Shown here: positions 5,014 to 30,936 of the stretch, piece by piece
How the letters are laid out: each line of letters starts with the position of its first letter
Numbering within the stretch: position 1 is the first letter of the stretch
Source of the DNA: an uncultured Chloroflexia bacterium
GTDB taxonomy: Bacteria > Chloroflexota > Anaerolineae > Aggregatilineales > UBA3940
Length of the DNA stretch: 64,000 nucleotides
Direction of reading: 5' to 3'
Assembly (NCBI GenBank): GCA_963787375.1
Contig: CAWBCR010000013.1
Span: forward strand, 101,654-165,653
Made by a program: the position numbers and the translations under genes
The notes under the pieces: model-generated
Told to the model about the DNA's origin: nothing
Database searches by the model: none
The model's input: only the letters and a program-made list of their open reading frames with translations

Positions 5014-5034
5014 ACGATAAACCTCTGAACGAAG

Positions 5035-5202: not shown

Positions 5203-5231
5203 CGGGGCCATGATCCGTATCAGACTGCCGG

Positions 5232-7274: not shown

Positions 7275-7278
7275 CGCG

Positions 7279-9054: not shown

Positions 9055-9125
9055 TCAGAGCCTCTGAGATAGCCGTTCTGAGCTGCACGCTTTAGATTAC
9101 CGCAACACGCCCGGTTCCGCTGCAT

Positions 9126-9135
9126 TGATTAATCA
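9126..9135. promoter_or_regulatory. Perfect 10-bp palindrome TGATTAATCA in the divergent intergenic region (candidate operator)
   Basis: It lies in the AT-richer 242-bp gap between divergent genes starting at 9054 (-) and 9297 (+). It is flanked by GCA/TGC, giving an imperfect 17-bp palindrome. Confidence 0.25.
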
Positions 9136-9296
9136 TGCAAAATTCACGAAATCTTCTTCTCCACATAGCGCGCTTTGTGGTACAGTAAGGCTGGATTTAT
9201 CAGACAGAAATGCCCGTATTTATCTTTCTTAACCTTTGGGGGCCCAGATTATGCTGCTTTCCCATTGGAATTATCAGGTCAAGGGGTAAAGGAATC

Positions 9297-10460
9297 ATGG
9301 TTTATAGAGTTTTTGCTGGCCTGCGGGGTCGCTCGATTGAGCGCATCCTGGCAGTTGCCTCGTTTCTGGCGTTGCTGGCGCTGTTTCTGTCGCCGGCTCC
9401 GAGAGCGTTCTCGGAAGAGCTGCCGCCGCCCGAAAATCCGACCTATATTCAGACGAACGCGGCAGGCACCGATATCAGCCGCGGCGACTGGTACACCGCC
9501 GCTGCCGGCGGCGGCCCGGGTGGCTACCAGTATTATGCCATCTACGTGCCGTGCGGCTGGCCGACCAATAAGCCGGTCGATATTGACCTGTACAGCCCCG
9601 AGATGAACCAGAACGCGCTGGGGCTGGCCGATGAGGATGACAACGGCAACATCAACTGGGCCAACCCGACGGCTGCCAACCAGACGACCTTCGAGCTGTA
9701 CAGCCCGGGCACGACCTTTACATCCTATGCGACGCCCGGCCCCGGCGCTGCCGGCAGCCTGATCCAGACCAACTACCTGCCCAGCACCCAGCCCGAGCAG
9801 TGGGTGCGCTTCTACACCATCGACGTCGCCGCGACCGGCTGCGGACAGTACCTCCTGCGCGTAGCCGCTTCTGATGACGACCAGAACGGCTGGCGGCTGC
9901 GCATCGGCGCCGACGACGACAACAATCCCAACAACACCCCGCCGCCACTGGGCTACGACGACGCCGACAATACACCCGGCACCGGCGACGAACTAATCAT
10001 CGGCATGCTGCAGACGGCCTTCCAGCACGACAACGGCGTGCTGACCTGCCTCGACCTGTACCAGTACGTCACCCCCAGCCAGACGTCGGTGACATTCAAC
10101 AACTTTGACTTCGACTACCCCGGTCTGGGCACCGACACAACAGTGACCTATTACTCTCCAAACGGGAGGGTGATAACGGGCACGGCATCGGGCGGCACGG
10201 CCTGGAACAACGGCAGCAACACCACGCGCGGCGGTGATACCTACACCAGCGCCAATGCTGCCTTCGCCAGCGGCTGGTGGCGCATCCGTAGCTGCGTCAC
10301 GAATCACAACCAGTACATTCAGGAAGGCCAGCTTGCGGTGCCGACCTTCTACAAGCAGCCCCCGACGCCGGCCCTGAAGATCGAGAAGACGAACAAGTCT
10401 GTCACGAGGACCAACGGTCAAGTCGATAAGCTACGACATCACGATCACCAACACCTCTAA
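9297..10460 (+). CDS. Giant surface protein, fragment 1: signal peptide + unknown N-terminal domain + start of a DUF11-type repeat
   Basis: ATG 9297 is preceded by AAGGGG/AAGGAA. Signal peptide MVYRVFAGLRGRSIERILAVASFLALLALFLSPAPRAFS. The frame is lost near 10425, where LKIEKTNKSV...SYDITITNTSNVTYTPGE continues in the next frame. Three more shifts occur near 10648, 10692 and 10780. Confidence 0.7.
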   Translation: MVYRVFAGLRGRSIERILAVASFLALLALFLSPAPRAFSEELPPPENPTYIQTNAAGTDISRGDWYTAAAGGGPGGYQYYAIYVPCGWPTNKPVDIDLYSPEMNQNALGLADEDDNGNINWANPTAANQTTFELYSPGTTFTSYATPGPGAAGSLIQTNYLPSTQPEQWVRFYTIDVAATGCGQYLLRVAASDDDQNGWRLRIGADDDNNPNNTPPPLGYDDADNTPGTGDELIIGMLQTAFQHDNGVLTCLDLYQYVTPSQTSVTFNNFDFDYPGLGTDTTVTYYSPNGRVITGTASGGTAWNNGSNTTRGGDTYTSANAAFASGWWRIRSCVTNHNQYIQEGQLAVPTFYKQPPTPALKIEKTNKSVTRTNGQVDKLRHHDHQHL

Positions 10461-10909
10461 CGTGACTTACACACCCGGGGAGGCCAACAGCGTAGTCATT
10501 CGCGACACTCTGCCGGTCAGGGAGCAACGGCGCAACGCCGTCATCTATAATAGCTGCACGGTCAAGCCGCCCTACACCGGCACGTGCACCTACAATGCCA
10601 ACGGTGGCTCGGATCACTACCTCGACATTACCCTTAACCAGGGCATCGAGCGCGGGCGCGACGGCCATCGTCACCCTCAACGTCACGACGAACTGCTGGC
10701 ACACGCACCTACAACAACAGCGCCTGCGTTACCTACACAGATGAGCTCGGCAACCCTTTCCCTTCAACCTGTACGCCACCTTCACCGTCGATAAGCTCCA
10801 GGCGGGTGATACTGTCTGGCTGGACACGGACGGCGATGGCATTCGCGACGTAGGCGAGGCTGGCTTCCCCAACGTCACGCTGCGGCTGTACAACGTCGGC
10901 CCGGACGGC

Positions 10910-12103
10910 GTGCCGGGCGGCGGCGATGACGTGCTGGCGGGCACCACCACCACCGACGCGAACGGCTACTACCTGTTCAACTACACCATACCCGGCACGT
11001 ACTACGTCGACATCGACACCGCGACGCTGCCCGGCGGCGCGGCCCCGTGGACGGCTTCGCCCGGCACCACCGACCCGTCATCGCCGTTTAACCAGAGCGT
11101 CTACCTCGACGCCGACTTTGGCTACGGGGCCAGCCCATCCACCGCTGTGATCGGCGACCTGGTGTGGAGCGATGCCAACAATAACGGCGTCCGCGATCCC
11201 GGCGAGCCTGGCATCAGCGGCGTGACGCTCAACTTGATAGGCCCCGGCCCCGACGGCCTGCTGGGCACCGGCGATGACGTGGTCGTCGCGACGACCACCA
11301 CCAACGACAGCGGCAACTACTACTTCACCGGTGTCACGCCCGGCGAGTACCGGGTCGACGTGACGGACACCGGCGGCAGGCTGGCCGGCTACACCATCAC
11401 AGCGGGCTCACGCGATCCAACGCCGCCCATCACCGTCAACGCCGGCGACAACTACCTGAACGCTGACTTTGGCTACCGCAACACCGGGTTATACACCATC
11501 ACCGAACGTGTGTGGCTCGATACTAACGGCAACGGTGCGCAGGATGCAGGCGAGGTGGGCATTGCGAACGTCTCGGTTAACCTTGTCATCGCCGGCACAG
11601 ATGGCATCTTTGGCACCGCCGATGACCGTGTGATCGCCACCACAATCTCCGCCTCTAACGGCGATTTCACCTTCACCGGCGTGCGCAATGGCGACTACAG
11701 GATCGTGATCGGGGACCGGCATGGCGTGCTCGACGAGTACACCGGCACGACCGCCGATGCTACCAACAAATACCGCAACGTGACTGTCGCTGGTGCGAAC
11801 ATCACCGGCGTCCATTTTGGCTACCACCGCCGGGCACCATCGGCGATACCGTGTTCAGCGACCCGAACAACAATGGCGTGCAGGACCCCGGCGAGCCGGG
11901 CATCGGCGGCGTGTTTGTTGAGCTGTGGCAGGACACCGGCGACGGCGTCTTCAACAGCACAAACGACACGCGGCTCGGAATCACGCGCACGTGGCAGATG
12001 GCACCTATCTTTTCACCGGGCTCATCACCAGCGCCGGTGGCAACCGCTACTACGTGAGCGTTCTGGACAGCACGACGCTCGGCGGTATCAACAACCGATA
12101 TAA
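10910..12103 (+). CDS. Giant surface protein, fragment 2: SdrD-B/Cna-B-like repeats
   Basis: The frame is open from 10745. Repeats have the form GDxVWxDxNxNGxxDxGExGIxGVTxxL...TTTDxxGxYxFxGxxPGxYxV. The sensible reading leaves this frame near 11825 and passes through ORFs 11851-12057 and 11925-12191. Confidence 0.7.
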   Translation: MPGGGDDVLAGTTTTDANGYYLFNYTIPGTYYVDIDTATLPGGAAPWTASPGTTDPSSPFNQSVYLDADFGYGASPSTAVIGDLVWSDANNNGVRDPGEPGISGVTLNLIGPGPDGLLGTGDDVVVATTTTNDSGNYYFTGVTPGEYRVDVTDTGGRLAGYTITAGSRDPTPPITVNAGDNYLNADFGYRNTGLYTITERVWLDTNGNGAQDAGEVGIANVSVNLVIAGTDGIFGTADDRVIATTISASNGDFTFTGVRNGDYRIVIGDRHGVLDEYTGTTADATNKYRNVTVAGANITGVHFGYHRRAPSAIPCSATRTTMACRTPASRASAACLLSCGRTPATASSTAQTTRGSESRARGRWHLSFHRAHHQRRWQPLLRERSGQHDARRYQQPI

Positions 12104-12254
12104 CCAGGACGGGCTGCTCGGCTTTACGCGGACAACTGCTGACAATGAGACAGGCGTGAATGCCTCGGCACCCAGCGGACGATTGTGCTGACGATGCGTC
12201 GCACGCATCAACCTGACTGCCGACTTCGGCTACCGCAACACCAACCTGGTCAGC

Positions 12255-15200
12255 GTGTCGGGCACGGTGTGGAACGACCTCAACGTCAACGCCTACATCG
12301 ACGGCGGCGAGCCGGACCTCAGCAACGTGACGGTCGACCTGCTGGACGCCAAGGGGCGCGTGGTGGCTACCACCACCACCGACGCCAACGGCAACTACAC
12401 CTTCAGCGGCGTGCCGCGCGGCGGGTACACTGTGACGATCACCGACCGGAACCGCGTGCTGAACGGCTTCGAGCTTACCAGCGGCCTCGACAGCATCCCG
12501 GTGGCAGTGTGGACCAGCAACATCACCGGCGTCAACTTTGGCTACGTGCGCCCGCCATACAATGGCAGCATCGGCGACTTCGTGTGGTTTGACTCGGACC
12601 GCGACGGCGTGCAGGATGCCGGCGAAGGCGGCATCTCCGGAGTCACGCTGAACCTGTACAGCACCGGCACCGACGACATCATCGGCAATGGCGATGACGT
12701 GCTGATCGGCACGACCACGACCGACGCCACCGGCCACTACACCTTCGAGGGGCTTGCCCCCGGCAACTACTACGTCGACCCCGACGAGACCACGCTACCC
12801 AGCGGGCTGGCGGCGACGTTCGGGACCGGCGGCAACAGCGGCATGATCAACCTGAGTGCCAGCGAGACGTACGATAAAGCTGACTTCGGCTATGCGTCGT
12901 CGGGCGGCACCGTCGCCCTGGGCGACCGCGTGTGGTACGACGCCGACGGCAACGGCCTTCAGGACCCTGGCGAGGTGGGCATTGGCGGTGTGACCATCAC
13001 CATCACCGGCCCATCCGGCACGTTCCATGTGACCACCCGCCCTGACGGCTCGTGGCTGCAAACGGGCCTCGCGCCCGGCGACTATACCGTCACGGTAGAT
13101 GCCACGAACTTCTCGAGCGGCGTGCTACAGCCTCCCTATAACGCGACGCCGACCAACGGCCCGGTTTCGCGCACGCTGACTGTCCCACCGGGACAGGACG
13201 TGCTGTATGCCGACTTTGGTTTCAACGGCGGCACCGCCGGCACCATCGGCGACACGGTCTTCCTGGACCCCAACGGCAATGGCGTGCAGAATAGCGGCGA
13301 GCCCGGCCTGGCAGACGTGACGCTCAACCTGATCAACCAGACGACGGGTGCGATCATCGCGTCGACCGTCACCGACTCGGATGGGCACTACAGCTTCGTC
13401 GGCGTGCCCGCCGGAACGTACACCGTCCAGGTTACCGACATCAACGGTAAACTGGCCGGGCTGGTCAACTCAACCGTTAACCCCATCACCTCGATTGTGC
13501 TGGCCAGCGGCGCGACGTACAACGACGCCGACTTCGGCTACGTGCCGACCGCCGGCTCCATCGGTGACCTGGTGTGGAACGACATCAACGGCGACGGCGT
13601 GCACGACGCGGGCGAGCCCGGCATCCAGGGCGTCGAAGTCGACCTGTACTTTGACGTAAACGGCGACGGGCTGCTCGACCCCGGTGTGGACAACCTGATC
13701 CGCACCACATACACGGACGTCAACGGCCAGTACGGGTTCGAGGGCCTGCCGGTTGGCTCCTTCCTGGTGGACGTGGTCGAAACCAGCTCTGCGCTGACCG
13801 GCTTCTCAAAGACAACGGGCCCCAATCCGGGCACCAACGACAACAGCCAGTCTGACCCATACGTAGTGGTGCTGACCACTTCTACGTCAATCCGGAACGA
13901 TACGGCAGACTTTGGCTTCCAGGCGACCGGCACCGCCTACTCGATCACCGGCATCACGTTTGAGGACGTGAACAACAACGGTGCCTTCAACAGCGGCACC
14001 GACAAGCCCACCAGTAGCGTCCTGCTGTACCTGTATCGCGATCTGGATGGCGACGGTGTTCTGGACCCCGGCGAGCCGCTCATCGACCAGACTGTTTCGG
14101 GCAGCACCGGGACTGCCGGAGCCTACACCTTCGACGGTCTGCCGAACGGGCACTATATCGTGCAGGCGGACGCCTCGCACTCGATCCTGAATGGCTTCCA
14201 GCAGACGACGCAGACGACTTCGGGTGGTGTGCAGCCGGTGTTTATCAACAACGCCGACTCGGCCAACAACAACCTTGGCTTCTATGCCCCCGGCGGCGCG
14301 CAGACGACGCCCGTCACGCTGTCCTACTTCCACGCCTTCGATCAGGGTGAGACACTGCGTTTCGACTGGTCGACGTCGCTGGAGATTGGCAACGTCGGCT
14401 TCAACCTGTTCGCCAAGGTCGGCGGCGACCTGCGCCCGATCAACGACACGCTGATCGCCTCGCAGGCGGTCGACTCGACCGAGCGGCTGGATTATACCTA
14501 CACGGCCACCGGTGTTGAGGGCAGCACCTTCTACATCCAGGACGTCGACGTGCTGGGCCAGCCACAGATGCATGGACCGTTCGCGCTGGGCCAGGCCAGC
14601 GGCCAGCGTATCGCCCCCGACCCCATCGACTGGGCCAGCATCCAGGCCGAAAACGACAGCCTGGCCGCGCAGCGGCTGGCTGCCGAACGCGCCGCCGCTG
14701 AGGCTCAGGTCGCGCAGGCGCAGCTAAGCGACGGGCACGGGTTTGCCCGCGTGCGCCGCTCAGTTGCAACGGCGCTGGAATGGGTCGGTGGCCTGTTCAA
14801 CGGGAAGCAGGCGGCTGCCGACAGCGGCTACCCGGTCTTCAACCTGACGCTCGACCATACCGGCCTGTATCGCGTCACCTACGAGCAGCTTGCCGCCGCC
14901 GGGCTTGACCTGGACGGCGTGGCCGCCGCGGACATCGCGCTGACGTCTCAGGGCGCAAGCGTGCCCGTCCGCGTGGTGGGCGATCCGTTCGGGCCGGGCA
15001 GCTTCATCGAGTTCTACGGCGAGGCACTCGACACACTCTACACGCACACCAACGTGTACGCGCTGCACGTGGACCACAGCCTGGTGAGCCAGGTGGCGGT
15101 CGACAACACGCCGGTCGATGCAGGCGCGCCGGTTGCCAGCTACTACATGGCGCAGGCCACCTACGGCTCGGACAAGGCGTACTCCTTCAGCTCGCCAAAC

Positions 15201-17639
15201 GGCGACCCGTGGTATGACACGTCGATGCTGGCGCGCACGTCATCCAAGTCGTGGAACTACACCATCGCCGTTGATAACTACGCGGCCAGCGCAGCCCCCG
15301 CTACGTTGGACGTGCAGATGTGGGGCAGCACCGACTGGCCGCAGTCACCCGACCACCGCGTCGTGGTCGGCTTCAATGGCACGAACATCGCCGATCTGAC
15401 CGTCAACGGTATCGTCAACATCCCGGTGACGGCCAATCTACCGGATGGCACGCTGCAATCGGGCAACAACACGCTCAAGGTGACGCTGCCCGGCGATACT
15501 GGCGTGGCATACGACCTGGTAATGTTCGACAAGGCGACGGTGACCTATCCGCGCGGCTTTGTCGCCAAGAACGGCGCGCTGACCTTTGACGGGTCGGCGC
15601 AGGCTTTCCGAGTGACGAACCTGCCCTCGCCTAACGTGACCGTGTACCGCATCGACTCCGACGGCAGCCAGACGCTGCTGGCGGCCAGTGTCGATGGCAG
15701 CGGCGGCTCGTACAGCGCCACCTTCGCCGGCACGTCACATAACGCAACCTACATCGTGACGGCGGACAGCGCTGTGCGCACGCCCGACGTCGTACCCGGC
15801 AGCCAGCCGGTCGACCTGCTTGGCGGCAAGACCGACTTCCTGATCATCGCGCATCCCAACTTCATCGACGGCATCCAGACGCTGGCGCAGGTACGCGCGG
15901 CGCAGGGCCTCAAGGTGCGGGTGGTCAGCGTCGACGACGTGTACGCGCAGTACAGCGGCGGTGTGTTCGACCCGCAGGCCATCCGCGACTACATCAAGGA
16001 CGCGGTGAAGCAGGACGGTGTCAAATACGTGCTGCTGGTCGGCGGTGACACGTACGACTATCTGCACAACACCAGTGCCAGCGCGATCAGCTTTATCCCG
16101 ACTCTGTACGCGCCCACCGACGACCTAGGCATCGTGCAGTATGCGCCGGTCGACCCGCTGTACGCGGACGTGAACGGCGACAACGTACCGGACGTGGCGC
16201 TGGGGCGCTTCCCGGTGCGCACGAACGCCGAGCTTGACAGCATGATCGCCAAGACGCTGGCCTATGAAACCAACGACTACGGGCAGACGGCGGTCTTCGC
16301 CGCCGATATCTACGACGGCTCTGGCGACCAGCCGCTCAACTTCAGCGCTGACAGCGATGCGCTGATCTCGCAGCTTGGCGATGGTTGGTCGGTACAGCGC
16401 GCCTACCTGGACAACAGCAGCGTTGCAGCGGCGCAGGCCACCCTCGTTGATGCGATCAACAACGGCGTGGCGCTGACCAGCTTCATCGGCCACTCGTCGT
16501 ATGACCGCTGGACCTTCAGCGGGCTGTTCAGCATGAACCAGGCGACCGCGCTCACCAATGCGGGGAGCCCGACCATCATCAGCCAGTGGGGCTGCTGGAA
16601 TACCTACTTCGTCTCACCGACGGCCAACACGCTGGGCCACGCCTTCCTGCTCTCCGGCGACCGGGGCGCAGCAGCGGTGATGGGCTCATCGACGCTGACC
16701 GAGGACGCATCGGAGACGGCCCTCGGCCACATCCTGAACCCGTACCTCGTCCAGCCGGGCATGCGCATCGGCGACGCCATTACGCAGGCCAAGGCCGACC
16801 TGGCGGTAACCGACCCGTCGCTGCGCGATGTCTATCTTGGATGGACGCTGCTTGGCGACCCAACGCTGACCGTCGTGCGCGACCCGCACGCCAGCATGGC
16901 CCCGGTGGTCGATGCCGGCGCGAACGTCAGCACCAACATGGGCGACGAAGTGGGCTTCTCCGGTACCGTGCTTGACCTCGACCCTGGCGACAGCACCAGC
17001 GCCGCCTGGGACTTCGGCGACGGCACGACCGGCGGCGACACACTGACCCCAACCCACGTCTACACCTGGCCGGGCGTCTACACCGTCACGTTGACGGCAA
17101 CTGACAGCACCGACAAGACCGGCAGCGACACGCTGACTGTCACCGTGGGCGCGAACGGGGCCACCGTTGCGACCATCCAGCCTAACCCCGGCCTGTCTGC
17201 CGGCGAGGTCATGGTCTATCAGAATGGCTGGGAGACGCTCGACGGCAGCGTGGACGGCGCGGGCCGCCTCGCGGTGCAGCTCGACGCACTCCCGGATGAC
17301 ACGCCGCTGACGGCCCTCTACACCGTCACGCCTGCCCAGGACCTGGCGCTGTGCGGCCCGGCGGGACAGTGCGCCATCACACTGAACGGCGCGCCGGTCG
17401 ACACGACCCGCACCACGGCGGACGATGGCAGCATCGTCTACACGGCGGATAACACGCTGGCGGCAGGCACCGCCACGCTGATCGGGCTGGGGCTTGACCC
17501 CACCGCAGGCGGCGCAGGCGTCGATACGGCGCTCGAACTCCAACACCAACGTGCAGGTCTCGGCGCAGGGCGACATCGCGCAGGTGCTGTCCATGCCCGA
17601 CGGCGACGCGCAGCCGACCGGGATCGTCACCGCGGGTGA
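12255..17639 (+). CDS. Giant surface protein, fragment 3: SdrD-B-like repeats + peptidase C25 (gingipain-like) module with propeptide-like region + PKD domain
   Basis: 1794 aa. About 9 SdrD-B-like repeats come first. The C25-type module runs from GYPVFNLTLDHTGLYRVTYEQLAAAGLDL to LGDPTLTV (14826-16873), with candidate catalytic His (FIGHSSYDRW) and Cys (ISQWGCWNTYF). A PKD domain follows (WDFGDGTTGGDTLTPTHVYTWPGVYTVTLTATD). Confidence 0.8.
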   Translation: MSGTVWNDLNVNAYIDGGEPDLSNVTVDLLDAKGRVVATTTTDANGNYTFSGVPRGGYTVTITDRNRVLNGFELTSGLDSIPVAVWTSNITGVNFGYVRPPYNGSIGDFVWFDSDRDGVQDAGEGGISGVTLNLYSTGTDDIIGNGDDVLIGTTTTDATGHYTFEGLAPGNYYVDPDETTLPSGLAATFGTGGNSGMINLSASETYDKADFGYASSGGTVALGDRVWYDADGNGLQDPGEVGIGGVTITITGPSGTFHVTTRPDGSWLQTGLAPGDYTVTVDATNFSSGVLQPPYNATPTNGPVSRTLTVPPGQDVLYADFGFNGGTAGTIGDTVFLDPNGNGVQNSGEPGLADVTLNLINQTTGAIIASTVTDSDGHYSFVGVPAGTYTVQVTDINGKLAGLVNSTVNPITSIVLASGATYNDADFGYVPTAGSIGDLVWNDINGDGVHDAGEPGIQGVEVDLYFDVNGDGLLDPGVDNLIRTTYTDVNGQYGFEGLPVGSFLVDVVETSSALTGFSKTTGPNPGTNDNSQSDPYVVVLTTSTSIRNDTADFGFQATGTAYSITGITFEDVNNNGAFNSGTDKPTSSVLLYLYRDLDGDGVLDPGEPLIDQTVSGSTGTAGAYTFDGLPNGHYIVQADASHSILNGFQQTTQTTSGGVQPVFINNADSANNNLGFYAPGGAQTTPVTLSYFHAFDQGETLRFDWSTSLEIGNVGFNLFAKVGGDLRPINDTLIASQAVDSTERLDYTYTATGVEGSTFYIQDVDVLGQPQMHGPFALGQASGQRIAPDPIDWASIQAENDSLAAQRLAAERAAAEAQVAQAQLSDGHGFARVRRSVATALEWVGGLFNGKQAAADSGYPVFNLTLDHTGLYRVTYEQLAAAGLDLDGVAAADIALTSQGASVPVRVVGDPFGPGSFIEFYGEALDTLYTHTNVYALHVDHSLVSQVAVDNTPVDAGAPVASYYMAQATYGSDKAYSFSSPNGDPWYDTSMLARTSSKSWNYTIAVDNYAASAAPATLDVQMWGSTDWPQSPDHRVVVGFNGTNIADLTVNGIVNIPVTANLPDGTLQSGNNTLKVTLPGDTGVAYDLVMFDKATVTYPRGFVAKNGALTFDGSAQAFRVTNLPSPNVTVYRIDSDGSQTLLAASVDGSGGSYSATFAGTSHNATYIVTADSAVRTPDVVPGSQPVDLLGGKTDFLIIAHPNFIDGIQTLAQVRAAQGLKVRVVSVDDVYAQYSGGVFDPQAIRDYIKDAVKQDGVKYVLLVGGDTYDYLHNTSASAISFIPTLYAPTDDLGIVQYAPVDPLYADVNGDNVPDVALGRFPVRTNAELDSMIAKTLAYETNDYGQTAVFAADIYDGSGDQPLNFSADSDALISQLGDGWSVQRAYLDNSSVAAAQATLVDAINNGVALTSFIGHSSYDRWTFSGLFSMNQATALTNAGSPTIISQWGCWNTYFVSPTANTLGHAFLLSGDRGAAAVMGSSTLTEDASETALGHILNPYLVQPGMRIGDAITQAKADLAVTDPSLRDVYLGWTLLGDPTLTVVRDPHASMAPVVDAGANVSTNMGDEVGFSGTVLDLDPGDSTSAAWDFGDGTTGGDTLTPTHVYTWPGVYTVTLTATDSTDKTGSDTLTVTVGANGATVATIQPNPGLSAGEVMVYQNGWETLDGSVDGAGRLAVQLDALPDDTPLTALYTVTPAQDLALCGPAGQCAITLNGAPVDTTRTTADDGSIVYTADNTLAAGTATLIGLGLDPTAGGAGVDTALELQHQRAGLGAGRHRAGAVHARRRRAADRDRHRG

Positions 17640-18762
17640 TACCGGCGGCGACGCGACAGCCAGCTTCACGCTCGACAGCACGACGCAGGATGCGCTGTGC
17701 GTGGCCGCCAACGGCTGCTCGATCTTCGCTGGCGACGCCGAGACGCCGCTGGCGACCACCTACACGGCGCAGGACGATGGCAGCGCGCAGTACAGCGCAG
17801 CCCTGACCTTCGAGCCGTACGAGACGAAAGTGCTCACGCTGCGGCCCTACAGCGACACAACTCCGCCGGTCGTCAACTCGTTCGACGTGACGCCGCTCAC
17901 CGTCATGGGTGGGCAGGACGTGACCATCAGCGCCAGCCTGCACGATGACGGCGCGCTGGCCAGCGTCATCGCAACAGTCGACTTCGACGGCACGCAGACA
18001 CCCATCACGCTGACGCCGGTCGACGGGCAGCCGGGCAGCTTCCAGGCGACCTGGACCGCGCCCGATGGCGGCAACGGTGCCTTCAGCATGACGCTCGAAG
18101 CGCAGGACGCGACCGGCAATACTGCGACCAGCGATCCGATCAGCGGCGTGGTCGACAGCGAACCGCCGGCGCTCACCGGGCTGGTGGTCGACGCTGCGAA
18201 CTTCGACGGCGATGTGCCGCTCACCGCGCCGGGCGACTGCCTGACCTATCACGTGACCGCCGAGGACACGCTCAGCGGCGTGGCAGCGGTCACTCTGACC
18301 ATCACCGGGCCGGATGGGTCGACCAGCGACGTGGCGCTGACCTACGACGAAACCGCCGCAGAGTATAGCGGCCAGGTCTGCACCACCGCCGAAAGCCCGA
18401 CCGGCGACTACACCGCAGCCGTCCAGATCGCCGACGCGGCGGGCAATACCGCCAGCGCCGACGGCGGGACGTTCAAGCTGCTGACGCCACTGAGCGTCAC
18501 GCTGGGGCCGGACCAGTCGGCGGGCGTGGGCGAAGACGTGGCATTCAGCGCGACCATCGACAACGCCGACCCGAACGAGACGTACACCATCAACTGGGAC
18601 TTCGGTGACGGCGGCACAGCGGACGGCTCGCTCGACGCGACGCACGCCTACGCCGATGCCGGCAGCTACACGGTGACCGTCAGCGTGACGGACTCGCATG
18701 GCGGCAGCGGATCGGCCACGCAGACCGTAACCGTAGCCGACGCGCCCGCCGATCAGCCTTGA
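17494..18762 (+). CDS. Giant surface protein, fragment 4: Ig-like domains + PKD domain
   Basis: It continues fragment 3 after a shift near 17520. It contains beta-rich Ig-like modules (TPPVVNSFDVTPLTVMGGQDVTISASLHDDG...) and a PKD domain (INWDFGDGGTADGSLDATHAYADAGSYTVTVSVTDSHGG). Confidence 0.7.
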   Translation: MTPPQAAQASIRRSNSNTNVQVSAQGDIAQVLSMPDGDAQPTGIVTAGDTGGDATASFTLDSTTQDALCVAANGCSIFAGDAETPLATTYTAQDDGSAQYSAALTFEPYETKVLTLRPYSDTTPPVVNSFDVTPLTVMGGQDVTISASLHDDGALASVIATVDFDGTQTPITLTPVDGQPGSFQATWTAPDGGNGAFSMTLEAQDATGNTATSDPISGVVDSEPPALTGLVVDAANFDGDVPLTAPGDCLTYHVTAEDTLSGVAAVTLTITGPDGSTSDVALTYDETAAEYSGQVCTTAESPTGDYTAAVQIADAAGNTASADGGTFKLLTPLSVTLGPDQSAGVGEDVAFSATIDNADPNETYTINWDFGDGGTADGSLDATHAYADAGSYTVTVSVTDSHGGSGSATQTVTVADAPADQP

Positions 18763-19021
18763 GCGTCACGCTGGGGCCGGACCAGTCGGCGGGCGTGGGC
18801 GATGACGTGGCGTTCAGCGCGGCCATCGACAACGCCGACCCGAACGAGACGTACACCATCAACTGGGACTTCGGTGACGGCGGCACAGCGGACGGCTCGC
18901 TCGACGCGACGCACGCCTACGCCGATGTCGGCAGCTACACGGTGACCGTCAGCGTGACGGACTCGCATGGCGGCACCGGCTCGGCCACACAGACCGTAAC
19001 CGTAGCCGACGCGCCCGCCGA
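18491..19021 (+). repeat. Near-identical tandem duplication (period 269 bp) encoding two PKD domains
   Basis: 18491-18752 and 18760-19021 align base for base with only a handful of substitutions (for example gaagac/gatgac, gcattc/gcgttc, gcgacc/gcggcc, gatgcc/gatgtc, agcgga/accggc). Confidence 0.85.
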
Positions 19022-19355
19022 ACCGCAGACAGTCACCATCACCGTGAAGGGTGGCAAGGTCACGCTGAACCAGCGGAACGGCCAGACGACCGTCCAGATT
19101 GGCAACAGGAGCTTTGACGGCTCGCAGATCGACATAAGCACCGTGCGCTTCGGCGTGGCCGGCACGGAGGCCAGCGGAACGCAGTCCGGCAAGATCAAGA
19201 AGGGCACCCTGACGCTGGTCTTCTCGACCGCCGACCTGGGCATCACGCCTGAAGTGGTCAGCGGCGGCAGGGTGACGCTGGTGATGATCGGCAACCTGAA
19301 GGACGGCACGCCGTTCGTGGGTACCACCGAGGTCAAGGTCATGGGCCTCAGGTAG
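18759..19355 (+). CDS. Giant surface protein, fragment 5: second PKD copy + C-terminal domain
   Basis: It begins at the junction of a 269-bp tandem repeat, which is not a multiple of 3. Its PKD domain is near-identical to the one in fragment 4. It ends ...TTEVKVMGLR, followed by a strong terminator. Confidence 0.7.
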   Translation: MSVTLGPDQSAGVGDDVAFSAAIDNADPNETYTINWDFGDGGTADGSLDATHAYADVGSYTVTVSVTDSHGGTGSATQTVTVADAPAEPQTVTITVKGGKVTLNQRNGQTTVQIGNRSFDGSQIDISTVRFGVAGTEASGTQSGKIKKGTLTLVFSTADLGITPEVVSGGRVTLVMIGNLKDGTPFVGTTEVKVMGLR

Positions 19356-19386
19356 CGCCGGGCTCATCTCCCCGGCAGGAATCGCA

Positions 19387-19424
19387 CCGGCCACGCCTTG
19401 AGAGGGGCGTGGCCGGTTTCTTAT
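19387..19424 (+). terminator. Rho-independent terminator shared by two convergent genes
   Basis: CCGGCCACGCC (19387-19397) pairs with GGCGTGGCCGG (19406-19416) around an 8-nt loop, followed by TTTCTTATT. It lies between the stop at 19355 (+) and the stop at 19449 (-). Confidence 0.8.
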
Positions 19425-19448
19425 TGGCAGATCCGCCGGGGTAGGGCG

Positions 19449-22400
19449 CTACGGAGTCACGATCAGCGTTGGGTCGCCCAGGATCGTCCACTGCTGGAAG
19501 ATGTCTGTCCAGTACGGCGCAGTGCGGGCCAGGTCGGCCTTGGCGGCCTGTACCGCCTGCCCGATGCTCGTGCCGGGCTGCCCCAGGTGATCCATCAGCA
19601 GGTTGCCGAACTGCTGCTCAGCGTTGGCAATGCCCAGCGTCGGCGTGCCCATCAGCGCCGCAGCGCCGTGGTCGCCCGAGAGCAGGAAGGCGTAAGCCAG
19701 CGTGTTGTCGTCGGGCTGCACGAAGTACGTCCCCCAGCAGTTGAAGTCGGCGACTACCGTCGGACGCCCGGCGTTGGTCAGGGCCAGCGCGTCGCCCGCG
19801 TTGAACAGCCCACTGTATGACCACCGATCCACCGCGCCGTGCCCCATATAGCTGGTCAGCGCGACCCCGCCGTTGATGGCGTCGATCAGCGCAGCGTGCG
19901 CGGTCGCCACATCGGTGTCGTCGAGGTAATCGCGCTGGACGGTCCAGTCACTGCCCAGGTAGGTGATGAAGCCGTCGCTGAAGTTATTCCACCACAGCCA
20001 CTCGCCGGACTGGACCTTGTCGGCGGCGAAGATGGCCGTGTTGGCGTAATCCTTGCTGCCGTAGGCCAGTGTCTTGCCGACCAGCGTATTCAGCTCGGCC
20101 TGCGTGCGCACCGGGAAGCGGCCCAGCGCCACGTCGGGCATGTTGTCGCCGTTCACGTCTGCGTACAGCGGGTCGGAGGGCGCGTAGCGGATTTCGACGA
20201 AGCTGGTCGGCGCGTACAGCGTCGGGATGTAGCTGACCGCATTCGGGTACTGATAGCGGTGGTAGTCGATGGTGTCGCCACCGACCAGCAGCACAGCCTT
20301 GACGCCCATGTTATTGACCGCGTAGGTGATGTAATCATGGATGGCCTGCGGGTCGAACACGCCGCCACTGAACTGCGCATACACGTCGGCTGCGTCGACC
20401 ACCCGCACGCTCATGCCCTGCGCCTGGCGGGCCTGCACCAGCGGCTGGATGCCGTCGATGAAGTCCGCATGCGAGATGATGAGGAAGTCGGTGGTGCCGC
20501 TGGTGATGTCTGCCGCCGGGCGGGCCGCTGCGATAGCGGGCGTGTTCAGCGAGCCGGCGGCGCTGACGACGTACCGGTCATTGGCTGCCGTGCCGGGGAA
20601 GGTGACGCTGTAGCTCGCACCGTCTGGCTCGACCAGCGCGCCGGCCAGCCGCGTCATGCCGGACCCGTCCAGCCGGTAGACCAGCACATCAGGCGAAGGC
20701 AGGTTGGTCACGCGGAAGGCCTCGCCGGAGGCGGTGAAGGACAGCCCGCCACCGCGCGCCACGAACGCACGCGGGTAGGTGATGGCAATGCTCTCAAGGT
20801 TCACAATCTCGTAGTCGACGCCGCTGTCGCCGGGCAGCGTCAGCGCCACCGCGTTGTCGCCGTCGTGCAGCGCATCTGCCGTCAGTGAGACGTCGACCGG
20901 CTGGCTGCCGAGGCCGTTGAACATCTGGTCGGCAACGGTTGCGCTGTTCAGCGCGATCACCACGTGGTGGTCAGGCGTGGCGGGCCAGTCCGTGCCGCCG
21001 TACATCTGCACCGCCAGCGAGGCGGGCGCTGCGCCCGCGACGAGGTTGTCGACGCTCAGGTTGAAGATCCAGTTCTTCGAAGTCTTGTAGACCAGCATCT
21101 GCTGCGCGTACCAGGGGTCGGCCAGCGGCGAGGAGAACGTGTAGCCGTGGTTCTCGTCGTAGGTGGCGGTCTCTTCGTAGCTGGCCGTCAGGGCTGCGCC
21201 GGGCTGCGCGCTGGTTAAGTTGACCGAAGCGTGGCTGGCCAGCCCACCGTTCACCTGAAGCTCATAGACGTTTGCGTCGGTGTACAGGCTGTGCGCGGCC
21301 TGGCCGTAGAAGACGATGCTTGAGCCCAGCCCGAACACATCGCCGCCGATCATGTCGACGGGGATGCTGGCACCGCGCGCCGTTAGTGCGATGCTGCTGG
21401 CCGGCACGCCGGCCAGATCGAGGCCCGCTGCCTGCAGGTCTTCATATGTGACTTGGTACAGCCCGTCGGCGCTAACCCGCAGGTCGTACGTCGGATAGCT
21501 GATGTTAGGGTCGGCAGGCGGAACATCGGGCAGTGGCGTATCGGTGACCACATCGACGGCGACAGTGACGAGCGCGACATTGGAGACCGCGCCGCTGTCG
21601 TCCTGAACCGTGTAGGAGAACGTGTCGTCGCCGGGCGTGCCCGCATCGGGTGTGTACGCGACAAGCCCACTGTCCAGGTCGACCGCCGCCGTGCCAAGTG
21701 CCGGCGTGCCGACGATGGTGACCGTCGCCGGGTCAAGCTGGCCGCTGGCGGCGATGTCGTTGGCGAGCACGTTGATGTCCACCGAGGCATTCTCGTCGAC
21801 CGAGGCGCTGTCGTCCACGGCGGTTGGTGCGGAGCTGTCGGCGGGCGGTGCCAGGGGCGTGCCGACCGTAATGGTCACCGTGGCGACGTTCGATACAGCG
21901 CCCTGCTTATCGGTGATGGTGTAGGTGAAGCTGTCTATGCCGGAGAAACCGCGACTGGGCGTGTAAGTCGCGACAGCCTTCTTGTTCACCGAAACCCTAC
22001 CGTTGGCCGGCGGCGTGATGATGCTGACCGACTTCAGGTTGAGGCTATCGCCGGAGTCAGTTTCCTGGTCGTTGTCGGCCACGCTGATCCTGACAGATGT
22101 CCGGACGTCCGTGACGGCGCTGTCGTCATTGGCAATGGGCGGCGTCACGGGCGGAGCTGGCTCGACGGTGATGGTGACGGTCGCAATATTGGAGGTCGCG
22201 TCGTGCTTGTCGTTGACGATATAGGTGAAGCTGTCCTCGCCCGTGAAGTCGGGGTTGGGCGTGTAGGTCACGATACCTTTTGTCATGTTCAGCGAGATGC
22301 TGCCATCTGCCGGGTCGCTCACGATGATGACCGTCTTGACGTTGACCGTGTCCCCATGGTCGGGGTCCTGGTCGTTGGCCGTCACGTCGATGCTGACCGC

Positions 22401-22598
22401 CGTCCCGGCGGTTGTCGCAGCGCTGTCGTCGGCGGCGACGGGCGGCGTGTTAGGTCCACTCGTGCGGCTGGCGCCGTGCGCACCATCAGACGCGTAAGCC
22501 AGCGGCGGCAGCGCCAGTGCAATTACTACCAGGAGCATAGTAACTATGAGCTTTGCGCTGGGAAGATAGTTGTGCTGGCGATGTGCTTTCATGGTCAT
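19449..22598 (-). CDS. Secreted cadherin-like-repeat protein with C-terminal peptidase C25 (gingipain-like) module; paralog of the module in 12255-17639
   Basis: The ORF extends to 22655. The likely start is ATG 22598 (MTMKAHRQHNYLPSAKLIVTMLLVVIALALPPLAYA) after GCGGGGA. It has three repeats of about 100 aa (PPVAADDSAATTAGTAVSIDVTANDQDPDHGD...FTYIVNDKHDATSNIATVTITV). The C25 module runs from SYPTYDLRVSADGLYQVTYEDLQAAGLDL to LGDPTLIVTP, with MGHGAVDRW (His) and ADFNCWGTYF (Cys). Confidence 0.85.
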   Translation of the reverse strand: MTMKAHRQHNYLPSAKLIVTMLLVVIALALPPLAYASDGAHGASRTSGPNTPPVAADDSAATTAGTAVSIDVTANDQDPDHGDTVNVKTVIIVSDPADGSISLNMTKGIVTYTPNPDFTGEDSFTYIVNDKHDATSNIATVTITVEPAPPVTPPIANDDSAVTDVRTSVRISVADNDQETDSGDSLNLKSVSIITPPANGRVSVNKKAVATYTPSRGFSGIDSFTYTITDKQGAVSNVATVTITVGTPLAPPADSSAPTAVDDSASVDENASVDINVLANDIAASGQLDPATVTIVGTPALGTAAVDLDSGLVAYTPDAGTPGDDTFSYTVQDDSGAVSNVALVTVAVDVVTDTPLPDVPPADPNISYPTYDLRVSADGLYQVTYEDLQAAGLDLAGVPASSIALTARGASIPVDMIGGDVFGLGSSIVFYGQAAHSLYTDANVYELQVNGGLASHASVNLTSAQPGAALTASYEETATYDENHGYTFSSPLADPWYAQQMLVYKTSKNWIFNLSVDNLVAGAAPASLAVQMYGGTDWPATPDHHVVIALNSATVADQMFNGLGSQPVDVSLTADALHDGDNAVALTLPGDSGVDYEIVNLESIAITYPRAFVARGGGLSFTASGEAFRVTNLPSPDVLVYRLDGSGMTRLAGALVEPDGASYSVTFPGTAANDRYVVSAAGSLNTPAIAAARPAADITSGTTDFLIISHADFIDGIQPLVQARQAQGMSVRVVDAADVYAQFSGGVFDPQAIHDYITYAVNNMGVKAVLLVGGDTIDYHRYQYPNAVSYIPTLYAPTSFVEIRYAPSDPLYADVNGDNMPDVALGRFPVRTQAELNTLVGKTLAYGSKDYANTAIFAADKVQSGEWLWWNNFSDGFITYLGSDWTVQRDYLDDTDVATAHAALIDAINGGVALTSYMGHGAVDRWSYSGLFNAGDALALTNAGRPTVVADFNCWGTYFVQPDDNTLAYAFLLSGDHGAAALMGTPTLGIANAEQQFGNLLMDHLGQPGTSIGQAVQAAKADLARTAPYWTDIFQQWTILGDPTLIVTP

Positions 22599-22969: not shown

Positions 22970-23593
22970 ATGTCAAGGAATCGATATAACCAGAAATCCA
23001 ACGTCGGCCTGGCTTTCAAGCGGCTGTTTGTATCCGGCTTTGTGGTCTTCTCATTTGTGGCCTACGCCATTCATGAGCGGCTGACGGGCCAGACCGCGGC
23101 AGCCAGCACACCCCTGCGCGCCAAGGTGCCGTCGGCAGAGACGGCGGCCACGGCCCGGGCGAACCAGACCAGCACGGCCAATAACAACGGCTTCGCCGAC
23201 GCTGGCAGCGCCGCGAACAATGGCGGCGGGGCCAACCAAGCCTCCGCCCCTGCCAGCGCGCCGACTGCCGCGCCCACGGCTGCGCCAACCGCCGCACCGC
23301 AGGGCCAGTATAAGGATGGCACCTACACCGGGCCGGTGGTCAACGTCTTCTACGGGCTAGTGCAGATACAGGCGACGGTCCAGAACGGCCAGGTCTCGGA
23401 TGTGCAGTTCCTGCAGTATCCCCGCGACCGCCGGACCTCGCAGTTCATCAACAGCCAGGCGATGCCGTGGCTCACGCAGGAAGCCATCCAGGCACAGACT
23501 TCCAACGTGAACATCATCTCAGGGGCCACGCTGACCAGCGAAGGGTTCATCATGTCGCTGCAGTCGGCTCTCAGCTCAGCAAAGAACAACTAG
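22970..23593 (+). CDS. Membrane-anchored extracytosolic FMN-binding domain protein (ApbE substrate)
   Basis: 207 aa. RBS GAGGGGA. N-terminal TM segment LFVSGFVVFSFVAYAI, an Ala/Pro/Thr linker, and an FMN_bind-type domain with the flavinylation motif SGATLT (23519-23536), identical in form to the NqrC/RnfG sites. Confidence 0.8.
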   Translation: MSRNRYNQKSNVGLAFKRLFVSGFVVFSFVAYAIHERLTGQTAAASTPLRAKVPSAETAATARANQTSTANNNGFADAGSAANNGGGANQASAPASAPTAAPTAAPTAAPQGQYKDGTYTGPVVNVFYGLVQIQATVQNGQVSDVQFLQYPRDRRTSQFINSQAMPWLTQEAIQAQTSNVNIISGATLTSEGFIMSLQSALSSAKNN

Positions 23594-23595
23594 CC

Positions 23596-24345
23596 ATGCA
23601 GCAGACACGTATCCTGATGGGGATGCCCGTCACCGTGGACGTCGTCGGCAAGTTCGTGACGGAGGAGCCGCTCGACCTGGTCTACTCCTACTTCGAATAC
23701 GTCGACGAGAAGTTCAGCACGTACAAGGACGCCAGCGAGATCTCGCTGATCAACGTCAAGCAGCTCAGCCTGGAACAGGCCAGCGACGACATGCGGACCG
23801 TGTTTCAGTTGGCGGAGCGCACCCGGCACGAAACGTTCGGCTACTTTGACATCACCCGCAGCGATGGCACCTATGACCCGTCCGGGCTGGTGAAGGGCTG
23901 GGCGATCTACAACGCCGCGCTGCTGCTGCGGGAGCGCGGGTACCAGAACTTCTACGTCGACGCCGGGGGCGACATCCAGACCTGGGGGCTGACCGAGGAT
24001 GACCAGCCGTGGCGCGTCGGGATCCGCAACCCCTTCAACATGGCGGAGATCGTCAAGGCGGTCGCCGTCGGCAGCCAGGGCGTGGCGACCTCCGGCACGT
24101 ACGCGCGGGGCCAGCACATCTACCGCCCCAACCACGCCGACGAGCCCATCGAGGATATCGTCAGCCTGACCGTCATCGGCCCCAACATCTATGAAGCCGA
24201 CCGCTTCGCGACGGCAGCCTTCGCCATGGGCCGCGCCGGGATCACGTTCATCGAGAGCCTGGAGGGCCTTGAGGGATACCAGATCGACAGCAGCGGCATC
24301 GCTACTTATACCAGCGGCTTTGAGGAATACGTTTGCCATGATTAA
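23596..24345 (+). CDS. apbE: FAD:protein FMN transferase (ApbE family)
   Basis: ATG at 23596, 2 nt after the upstream stop. MQQTRILMGMPVTVDV...STYKDASEISLIN...YDPSGLVKGWA...VATSGTYARG follow the ApbE pattern. Confidence 0.8.
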   Translation: MQQTRILMGMPVTVDVVGKFVTEEPLDLVYSYFEYVDEKFSTYKDASEISLINVKQLSLEQASDDMRTVFQLAERTRHETFGYFDITRSDGTYDPSGLVKGWAIYNAALLLRERGYQNFYVDAGGDIQTWGLTEDDQPWRVGIRNPFNMAEIVKAVAVGSQGVATSGTYARGQHIYRPNHADEPIEDIVSLTVIGPNIYEADRFATAAFAMGRAGITFIESLEGLEGYQIDSSGIATYTSGFEEYVCHD

Positions 24346-25858
24346 GCTTATCGACCGTTTTTTGAACCGGATCACGATGTACAGGCTGGTCCTGTACACG
24401 CTGATCGTCCTGCTGGGGGCCGCGCTGGTCTTCAGCTTCGCGGGCATCCTGCCCTACGACCCGTTCGCGCTGCTGCTCACGGTTGCCATACTGGTGGCTG
24501 TAAGCTGGCTGACCAACACCATCTTCGCAAAGGTGTTCCGCGTGCCGACTAACGTCGAGTCGGCGTACATCACGGCGCTGATCCTGGCGCTGATCATCGA
24601 CCCGCTGTCGGGCCCTGGCGACTTCTGGTTCATCGTGTGGGCCGCTGTGCTGGCGATGGCCTCCAAGTACATCGTGGCGATCAAGGGCAAGCACCTGTTC
24701 AACCCGGCGGCTTTTGCCGTCGCGCTGACCGCGCTGGCTGTTGGCCGCACTGCGAGTTGGTGGGTCGGTAGCGCGCCGATGCTGCCGTTTGTGCTGCTGG
24801 GCGGCCTGCTGATCGTGCGCAAGTTACGCCGCGTCGACCTGGTGATGAGCTTCCTGCTCACGTCGCTGGCAGCCGTTGTGATCTTCACCGTGCTGGGCGG
24901 GGGCGGACTGGGCTTGGCGATGCAGAACATCCTGCTCTACTCGCCGCTGTTCTTCTTCGCCGCGATCATCCTCACCGAGCCGCTGACCACGCCGCCGACC
25001 ACCAGGCTGCAGGTGGCGTATGGCGCGCTGGTAGGGATCCTGTTCATCCCGCAGTTCCACCTGGGGTCGTTGTACCTGACACCCGAACTGGCGATCCTGT
25101 TCGGCAACGTGTTCTCGTACCTGGTCAGCCCCAAGGCAAAGCTGGTCCTCAGCCTGAAGGATCGCGTGCAGGTGGCCCCCGGCATCTACGACTTCCTCTT
25201 CGTGCCGAACCAGATACTGGCCTTTGAGCCGGGGCAGTACATGGAGTGGACGCTGGGCCACCAGGACCCCGACAACCGGGGCAACCGGCGCTACTTCACG
25301 CTGGCGTCCTCTCCGACCGAGCGCCTGCTGCGGGTGGGCGTCAAGTTCTACCAGAACTCCAGCTCGTTCAAGCAGTCGCTGTTGAAGATGCACCGGGGCA
25401 GTGAGATCGTCGCCTCGCAGTTGGCCGGCGACTTCGTGCTCCCGCGCGACCCGCGCCAGCCGTGCGTGTTCATCGCGGGCGGCATCGGCATCACGCCCTT
25501 CAGGAGCATGATCACATTCCTGCTGGATACCCGCCAGCCGCGCCCGATCACGCTGTTCTACGCCAACAAGACCGTCGACGAGATTGCCTACAAGGACGTG
25601 TTCGACCGGGCCTGGCAGGAGCTGGGCATCAGGACGTTCTACACACTGACCAACCGGCGCAGCGTCCCGCCCGACTGGAACGGGATGGTGGGACGCATCA
25701 CGCCAGAAGTGATCGTCAGCCAGGTGCCTGACTACAAGAACTGTATCTTCTACATCTCGGGGCCGAACGCGCTGGTCGATTCGTTCAGGCGGACGCTGCG
25801 CGCGATGGGTATCCGCAGCAGCCACATCAAAGCAGACTTCTTCCCCGGCCTGTCGTGA
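24338..25858 (+). CDS. Polytopic NqrB/RnfD-like membrane domain fused to an FNR-type FAD/NAD(P)H-binding reductase
   Basis: ATG 24338 overlaps the apbE stop. The first ~330 aa are multi-TM and include KHLFNPAAFAV. The C-terminal part has RRYFTLASSP (RxYS-type FAD motif) and CVFIAGGIGITPFRSM (NAD(P)H-binding motif). Confidence 0.75.
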   Translation: MIKLIDRFLNRITMYRLVLYTLIVLLGAALVFSFAGILPYDPFALLLTVAILVAVSWLTNTIFAKVFRVPTNVESAYITALILALIIDPLSGPGDFWFIVWAAVLAMASKYIVAIKGKHLFNPAAFAVALTALAVGRTASWWVGSAPMLPFVLLGGLLIVRKLRRVDLVMSFLLTSLAAVVIFTVLGGGGLGLAMQNILLYSPLFFFAAIILTEPLTTPPTTRLQVAYGALVGILFIPQFHLGSLYLTPELAILFGNVFSYLVSPKAKLVLSLKDRVQVAPGIYDFLFVPNQILAFEPGQYMEWTLGHQDPDNRGNRRYFTLASSPTERLLRVGVKFYQNSSSFKQSLLKMHRGSEIVASQLAGDFVLPRDPRQPCVFIAGGIGITPFRSMITFLLDTRQPRPITLFYANKTVDEIAYKDVFDRAWQELGIRTFYTLTNRRSVPPDWNGMVGRITPEVIVSQVPDYKNCIFYISGPNALVDSFRRTLRAMGIRSSHIKADFFPGLS

Positions 25859-27642: not shown

Positions 27643-27660
27643 GACCCACCTCATTCGCGT

Positions 27661-28689: not shown

Positions 28690-28698
28690 GGTTGCCTC

Positions 28699-30901: not shown

Positions 30902-30936
30902 GATGTCGCTGCTCCTCTCGCCGGCGATAGCGCGCT

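Follow-up and report, generated by a model that had tools for sequence, protein, structure and literature searches.

To our knowledge, PorU is the only enzyme of peptidase family C25 known to act as a sortase, and it is treated as a speciality of Bacteroidota's type IX secretion system (T9SS). PorU removes the C-terminal domain (CTD) of T9SS cargo proteins and, for a subset of them, joins the new C-terminus to anionic lipopolysaccharide (LPS) (PMC11285876); the T9SS itself has been described as limited to Bacteroidota (PMC11285876, PMC5445135). Here, we describe two PorU-like C25 modules encoded on opposite strands of a 64,000-nucleotide stretch of DNA from an uncultured Chloroflexia bacterium (GenBank assembly GCA_963787375.1, contig CAWBCR010000013.1, positions 101,654 to 165,653), hereafter called the window. 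In about three quarters of the related loci, a C25 gene of this kind heads a lasso-peptide operon. The lasso operon thus gives the PorU-like module a concrete context in most of the related loci examined.

Lasso peptides have been studied for their antibiotic action and as stable scaffolds. The nearest described clusters are those of the paeninodin type, with split B1 and B2 genes and a tailoring kinase of the HPr-kinase type, and those of the pseudomycoidin type, with an NTP_transf_5 nucleotidyltransferase gene. Lasso clusters of such types have been reviewed (PMC8498205). The C25-linked loci resemble both types: they encode a cyclase, B1 of the PqqD type, B2 of the transglutaminase type, and a precursor in which Thr-2 and Gly1 are combined with an acidic residue at position 8. 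Most of them also carry a kinase-like gene, and some an NTP_transf_5 gene. They differ in starting with a gene for a large secreted C25 protein and in their cores, which are often long and proline-tailed.

A dedicated peptidase gene kept beside a lasso cluster has one apparent parallel. AtxE2-type lasso isopeptidases are serine peptidases of family S9, which are encoded beside the lasso cluster and are thought to act on the mature peptide. The likeness would be one of function and gene arrangement; the two enzymes are unrelated in fold and catalytic type, and the C25 enzyme is secreted and, in many cases, is tethered to giant repeat proteins. In the literature on lasso clusters together with C25, gingipain, or PorU enzymes, and on C25 enzymes in Chloroflexi, we found no report of the link.

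C25 genes at the head of lasso-peptide operons

Seventy-six loci from GTDB species representatives were fetched with an alignment of the module, and 66 of them were informative. All open reading frames (ORFs) of the loci were clustered, and representative neighbors were mapped back by tblastn. A lasso cyclase of the Asn-synthetase type (c. 640 residues) was encoded less than 1 kb downstream of the C25 stop codon on the same strand in 48 of the 66 loci, with a median gap of 78 bp, and lasso genes were located elsewhere in the locus in five more. The usual gene order was C25, cyclase (C), precursor (A), kinase-like gene, B1, and B2. This unit was present in Chloroflexota, Acidobacteriota, and Proteobacteria, demonstrating that the secreted C25 module, which has the architecture of PorU and an intact dyad, is tightly linked in operons of several phyla to one specific lasso pathway.

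The gene assignments were based on profile matches. The cyclases of the related loci matched NF033535 at 360–397 bits, which is under its cutoff of 525. The B2 proteins were transglutaminase-like and matched NF033537 at 83 and 67 bits (cutoff 33), and B1 corresponded to a PqqD domain (E 1e-13). The kinase-like protein contained a P-loop and gave weak HprK-related matches.

In 41 loci, the stretch that separates the cyclase from the kinase-like gene encoded a short precursor; the precursor consensus was …KPYxxPxLExLGDLRxLT|LGGSPGxGDSG…. Thr-2 and Gly1 were each present in 39 of these precursors and Asp or Glu at position 8 in 37, while 40 had an acidic residue at positions 7–9. The cores ranged from 17 to 41 residues, frequently with proline-rich tails, and the leader model NF033521 matched above its cutoff in the precursor of locus L006.

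Ser or Thr directly followed the acidic ring residue in 39 of the 41 precursors (…G-D-S-G…; e.g., L028, 13971–14150). From its position, the conserved Ser beside the ring is a candidate target of the co-encoded kinase-like protein. In paeninodin, the phosphorylated Ser is the C-terminal one.

In two loci of Anaerolineales (L015, 2789–11615; L065, 3270–12874), a second C25 gene was located after the lasso cyclase and before the kinase-like gene. The two C25 modules of L065 were sequence-identical, which points either to duplication in the very recent past or to a duplicate made by the assembly. Two C25 copies were also found in several other loci.

The association was also approached from the cyclase side. 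Eighty metagenome loci were retrieved with generic lasso-cyclase patterns, and a C25 gene was found in only one, the one nearest to the C25-linked cyclases. As the degenerate patterns fetched mostly distant lasso-cyclase or Asn-synthase loci (24–36% identity), this set was discarded as a reverse test and serves as a negative control only.

Because the C25 gene stands at the head of the lasso operon, we infer that the lasso peptide is a substrate or partner of the module. Our preferred reading, to which we give a probability of about 0.55 from sequence and gene order, is that the PorU-like C25 module acts as an extracytoplasmic peptidase or transpeptidase on, or together with, an exported lasso peptide. 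The Sec signal peptide would take the enzyme outside the cytoplasm, where the module, as a cysteine endopeptidase or transpeptidase, would have the exported lasso peptide as its substrate or partner. Its most likely action would be to cut or transfer the unusually long, variable C-terminal tail of the lasso peptide through acyl-enzyme chemistry of the PorU style, or otherwise to open the conserved Gly1–Asp8 ring, by analogy with the lasso isopeptidases. The adhesin-like repeats would keep the enzyme attached to the cell surface or to the matrix, and we would not regard it as a general protease of the gingipain type. In the window, this system looks half-dismantled, with the lasso genes and the plus-strand C25 gene disrupted and the minus-strand gene intact.

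A narrower version is offered tentatively and is itself doubtful. The module would then be a dedicated extracellular lasso partner, either a PorU-type transpeptidase that cuts the tail and ligates the peptide to the surface, to exopolysaccharide, or to its own stalk, or a cysteine-type isopeptidase. Either would form a new class of lasso-tailoring enzyme and would be the first sorting reaction of the PorU kind beyond the T9SS. If an action on lasso peptides is true, a secreted cysteine peptidase or transpeptidase would add a new tailoring or anchoring step to these pathways and could possibly serve as a new ligase tool. It would also open a first way to the function of the giant repeat proteins that filamentous Chloroflexota carry.

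Several points weigh against the preferred reading. The loci were the 80 best matches to the module of the window and thus represent its nearest relatives rather than an unbiased sample of the family. The kinase call is weak (24–26 bits against a cutoff of 200). A D-type ABC exporter, as in known lasso clusters, was not seen among the conserved neighbors of the C25-linked loci, which leaves the arrival of the lasso peptide at the secreted enzyme only putative. Gene linkage shows a functional connection and not its nature. In the window itself, the gene disruptions described below stem either from recent inactivation of an island or from poor assembly of this part; the plus-strand module shows no decay, and one of the shifts is located exactly at the junction of 97%-identical repeats. 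Finally, 13 of the 66 informative loci carried no lasso genes, and none directly follow the intact minus-strand copy of the window, which means that the module may work in their absence as well. Three of the 13 lasso-free entries were the first copy of a tandem C25 pair, the second copy of which was lasso-adjacent.

The loci without lasso genes are also what would be expected if these proteins were ordinary secreted or surface proteases, acting in nutrition or matrix remodeling on adhesin stalks, with the lasso genes nearby through co-regulation or a mobile island. The standard C25 catalytic domain with its intact dyad fits such a role, as do N-terminal scaffolds that vary freely, like those of other surface enzymes. 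We consider an ordinary protease unlikely, as it does not explain why the genes keep their order and their spacing of about 80 bp over three phyla (Chloroflexota, Acidobacteriota, and Proteobacteria), why a second C25 gene is located inside the lasso operon in two loci, or why generic lasso loci lack C25.

A PorU-like module of clan CD

Copy 1 of the module (14826–16873, plus strand, 682 residues) has a reading frame that is uninterrupted inside the module, and copy 2 (19452–21500, minus strand, 683 residues) forms the C-terminus of its protein. The sequence-only reading had described two colinear, paralogous modules of about 680 residues with roughly half of the residues identical by eye. Aligned end to end by BLASTP, the copies shared 369 of 681 positions (54%), with 69% positives, 4 gaps, and E = 0, which bears out both the estimate and the paralogy over the full module; the common strings quoted earlier (FRVTNLPSP, PLYADVNGDNxPDVALGRFPVRT, LGDPTL, and others) were seen in this alignment.

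Membership of family C25 was supported by Peptidase_C25 (Pfam PF01364), which matched copy 1 with E 1.2e-72 (245.7 bits) and copy 2 with E 1.6e-67 (228.8 bits), far above the cutoff of 23. The match took in profile positions 1–373/374 and, in each module, was confined to the last c. 340 residues. The candidate dyad is His556 (16491–16493) and Cys590 (16593–16595) in copy 1 and His554 (19839–19841) and Cys588 (19737–19739) in copy 2. These residues, which had been proposed as the catalytic pair from the letters, line up in the sequence alignment with the His and Cys of RgpB (presumably His211/Cys244), and the dyad was present in 33 of 34 aligned family members. Copy 1 retained 139 of the 141 family columns with at least 90% conservation; as the family mean is 5.3 mismatches, its two mismatches indicate a module without decay.

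The whole module was spanned by the PorU model NF033707 of NCBIfam (positions 106–734/1095; E 5.6e-53 and 9.7e-45), with scores of 179.9 and 152.6 bits that are far under the equivalog cutoff of 420. The PorU2 model of NCBIfam was matched across the module at positions 36–767/879, also far below its equivalog cutoff. The C-terminal part of PorU (NF033707 positions 735–1095, which comprises immunoglobulin (Ig)-like domains and a retained CTD) was unmatched.

An AlphaFold model of the minus-strand module, built on a 34-sequence alignment, had a predicted local distance difference test score (pLDDT) of 93.5 and a predicted template modeling score (pTM) of 0.91. Its predicted architecture consists of three beta-rich domains (residues c. 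1–335) followed by an alpha/beta catalytic domain. In a Foldseek search of the PDB, the top match was PorU (6ZA2; E 8e-32, 795 aligned columns, template modeling (TM) score 0.60), followed by RgpB and Kgp, whose alignments were confined to the catalytic half (c. 370–390 columns), and then by CHAT proteases and separase. The modeled fold thus agrees with the caspase-like, clan CD assignment of the sequence-only reading, and the module belongs to clan CD, family C25, with a PorU-like rather than gingipain-like architecture. Its closest characterized relative over the full length is PorU.

The label "gingipain-like" given to the modules earlier therefore stands for the family and not for the architecture. 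The gingipains RgpB and Kgp (1CVR, 4IEF, 4RBM) share the C25 catalytic domain, the caspase-like fold, and the aligned His and Cys; only their catalytic half aligns to the window module, at 15–19% identity, whereas PorU matches it as a whole, and the gingipain reading was dropped on this basis. The Propeptide_C25 prodomain (PF08126) had no match at E<=0.01 in the window modules, and no immunoglobulin superfamily (IgSF) domain and CTD follow the catalytic domain as they do in gingipains. PorU (Porphyromonas gingivalis PG0026, MEROPS family C25) has N-terminal beta-domains followed by a C25 domain, gives the best profile and fold match, and shares the dyad. It differs in that Ig-like domains and a CTD lie beyond the catalytic domain, right after which the window module ends, and in its host, a T9SS-bearing Bacteroidota member as opposed to a member of Chloroflexota; the module is, moreover, joined here to repeats of the adhesin type and has a link to lasso genes.

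The full-length match to PorU raises a further explanation, in which the module would be a PorU-type sortase outside the T9SS that cuts a C-terminal segment from surface proteins (possibly from its own stalk) and couples these proteins to a glycan or exopolysaccharide; the lasso peptide would then be a regulator or unrelated. PorU, as noted above, attaches cargo to anionic LPS (PMC11285876), and the genes downstream of the operon would suit such a reaction: a Wzz/GNVR and P-loop gene (of the Wzc-like chain-length determinant/BY-kinase kind) was located downstream of the lasso B2 gene in at least 12 loci, a DUF4012 gene was located downstream in about 11 loci, and L028 carried a TMEM260-like GT-C glycosyltransferase. 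These genes (e.g., L004, 17916–19985; L010, 11777–13786; L031, 15070–16782; L028, 15656–21092) indicate that the operon often lies within a polysaccharide or cell-envelope locus. This polysaccharide-gene link is, however, much weaker than the lasso-gene link. The module lacks a CTD, the NCBIfam scores (180 and 153 bits against 420) fall far short of those set for PorU, and no candidate cargo class was identified. Genes of the PorV, PorZ, and PorQ types or of a T9SS translocon were not recognized among the window ORFs scanned or the conserved neighbors of the related loci. We therefore regard a sortase of this kind as quite improbable. The sequence-only reading had recognized no T9SS CTD, LPXTG, or PEP-CTERM signal, and none was found in the follow-up; Por_Secre_tail, in particular, had no match at the C-terminus of either window protein.

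The module family is large. A word-indexed search found 240 homologues, many of them covering the full module at 40–54% identity, with the closest C25 homologues of the window at about 52%. Where names were given, they were hypothetical protein, "C25 family cysteine peptidase", or "tandem-95 repeat protein", and the named sources included Anaerolineae/Chloroflexi, Acidobacteria, and Delta- and Gammaproteobacteria. Among 1.84 billion representatives, 8,292 proteins were matched in a profile search at E<=1e-30; each of the 150 best matches contained the module in full, and these proteins reached 5,174 residues. The module ended at most four residues from the protein C-terminus in 111 of 118 homologues. 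Stand-alone members comprised c. 700 residues and started with typical Sec signal peptides, and the N-terminal scaffolds of the others varied (SdrD_B, DUF11, GEVED, and tandem-95). The module thus defines a large uncharacterized subfamily of Chloroflexota, Acidobacteriota, and some Proteobacteria that is devoid of the C-terminal Ig and CTD domains of PorU. Such PorU-like modules without T9SS domains are very common in Chloroflexota and Acidobacteriota (thousands of sequence clusters), and the window modules are new members of this large, unnamed PorU-like branch of family C25.

In P0121, a protein of 1554 residues in the representative library, the profile was matched in two stretches (1888 bits), and this protein may carry two tandem C25 modules.

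The age of the duplication was addressed by a neighbor-joining distance analysis of the window copies with copies from other genomes. The nearest relative of the minus-strand copy was the plus-strand copy (distance 0.461), and the plus-strand copy was equally near to copies in other Anaerolineae (0.457 and 0.459; range 0.457–0.49). The split of the window copies is thus old, and the distances fix neither its timing nor an origin within this genome.

Lasso remnant and disrupted genes in the window

Taken alone, the window is more modest than the related loci, with one intact and one apparently broken C25 copy beside a degraded lasso cluster, the latter outside the coordinates given in the sequence-only reading. 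A lasso cyclase-like gene of the Asn-synthetase family occupies 3059–5013 on the plus strand in three reading frames. Its pieces (3059/3095–3382, 3342–4067, and 4060–4950), which were delineated by tblastn with the cyclases of the related loci, match NF033535 and Asn_synthase. A lasso precursor-like ORF follows at 5035–5202 (plus strand), with a leader (YSAPRLEVYGSLRSVT) that matches the family. As read, its core (GGSPGTWRSG...) has no acidic residue at positions 7–9; when one base is removed in cccggg (c. 5150), it becomes GGSPGPGDLGNPT with Asp8, and the corrected precursor matches NF033521 (lasso_leader_L3) at 24.4 bits against a cutoff of 19. A fragment of a P-loop, HprK-related kinase-like gene is located at 5256–5922 (plus strand) in two frames. 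It is followed by an intact NTP_transf_5 nucleotidyltransferase gene at 6117–7337 on the minus strand, and genes of this family are found near the C25–lasso operon in 10 other loci. B1 and B2 were not found in the 64-kb window by tblastn.

The lasso set of the window is, as sequenced, both incomplete and broken, and the C25 genes are located 4–17 kb away from it. What the window shows is the common layout, two C25 genes with one lasso operon, in a rearranged and degraded form.

About 11 frame disruptions affect the plus-strand genes (cyclase, precursor, kinase-like gene, and giant C25 gene) between 3.06 and 19.4 kb, and an amidohydrolase gene on the minus strand (1740–2791) appears to be frameshifted too. 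Intact minus-strand genes are present within the 1740–19355 zone and at its edge (6117–7337, 7279–9054, and 19449–22598). No disruption was found among the large ORFs checked at 22.6–64 kb, which makes the disruptions at 1.7–19.4 kb local. Uniform sequencing error as the sole cause was rejected because of this clustering. Local misassembly is possible, as one shift is located at a tandem-repeat junction, while the missing B1 and B2 favor real loss over assembly error.

These disruptions, together with the missing B1 and B2, would also fit a relic, in which pseudogenes are all that is left of the plus-strand copy and of the lasso genes, and the minus-strand copy is a leftover without a current role. 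We consider it very improbable that the whole feature is a relic here. The minus-strand gene is of full length, encodes a signal peptide, and has a normal count of conserved residues; the plus-strand module is retained at 139 of 141 conserved columns, and codon bias, measured as G+C at third codon positions (GC3), is undiminished in every shifted segment. With the conserved columns and GC3 intact, either the decay is very recent or the shifts are assembly errors.

The giant surface-protein gene carrying copy 1 extends on the plus strand from a signal-peptide start at 9297 (MVYRVFAGLRG…FLALLALFLSPAPRAFS) to a stop codon at 19355. It contains about six frameshifts (near 10440, 10700–10760, 11815, 12000, 17520, and 18757) and one in-frame stop (12189), and the GC3 frame plot tracks each shifted frame. 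The reconstructed protein comprises the signal peptide, a 387-residue domain, a DUF11-like stretch (by eye only), at least nine SdrD_B repeats, a region of c. 175 residues, the C25 module, PKD/Ig-like domains, and a 110-residue C-terminal domain. With about 820 residues in total after the module, this copy is atypical of the family. The sequence-only reading had placed copy 1 behind SdrD_B-like repeats and ahead of PKD domains, and copy 2 behind cadherin-like repeats. These scaffolds were found as described, with the difference that the plus-strand gene is frame-broken as sequenced, so the SdrD_B–C25–PKD order describes a reconstructed protein and not a single ORF.

The 1794-residue ORF at 12255–17639 stands in the same form in the public representative protein library (P0140), and the shifts hence belong to the deposited assembly. 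The PKD-coding tandem repeats (18491–18752 and 18759–19020) are 97.3% identical in DNA over 262 nucleotides, and the frameshift at 18757 falls exactly at their junction; this shift could be a repeat-collapse assembly artefact.

The 387-residue N-terminal domain (9297–10457) and the 110-residue beta-rich C-terminal domain (19020–19352) had no Pfam match, and the ORFs holding them had no relevant NCBIfam match. The C-terminal domain could be an unrecognized anchoring or sorting domain. The region of c. 175 residues directly upstream of copy 1 (14304–14826; TTPVTLSYFHAFDQGETLRFDWSTSLEIGNVGFNLF…, followed by an Ala/Glu-rich linker) also had no Pfam match. It is conserved upstream of the module in the homologues P0004, P0012, and P0022 and is missing in the minus-strand copy.

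The gene carrying copy 2 (19449–22598, minus strand) is intact, encodes 1049 residues from a Met at 22598, and gave a single-frame tblastn match to its full-length homologue P0003. Its protein has a Sec signal peptide (…LPPLAYA|SDG), three Big_9/cadherin-like (tandem-95) repeats, and the C-terminal C25 module, and it ends three residues past LGDPTL. Judged from its intact frame, the minus-strand gene is the likelier of the two copies to be expressed.

The two C25 genes converge on a G+C-rich hairpin (19386–19417; 14 bp, 10 G-C pairs) located 31 nucleotides from each of the convergent stop codons. A shared terminator had been proposed for this place; one hairpin indeed lies between both stops, and it looks like a canonical terminator on the plus side only, where the adjoining T-run is found.

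Other genes of the window

Two further groups of suspected disruptions proved to be separate genes. Apparent frameshifts at 22970–25858 correspond to FMN_bind, ApbE, and RnfD/NAD-binding genes, and apparent in-frame stops at 43.7–46.6 kb correspond to UbiA, an ORF without assignment, and threonine synthase. The threonine synthase is 79–80% identical to proteins of Chloroflexota/Anaerolineae and groups with them, in keeping with a host of the Anaerolineae type within Chloroflexota.

A respiratory gene set resembling alternative complex III is located at 26755–33135 on the minus strand (ActD with a cytochrome c domain, an NrfD-type membrane subunit, and a molybdopterin-oxidoreductase-like subunit) and appears unrelated to the C25 finding. 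The FMN_bind, ApbE, and RnfD/NAD-binding genes, which are on the plus strand, adjoin this respiratory set.

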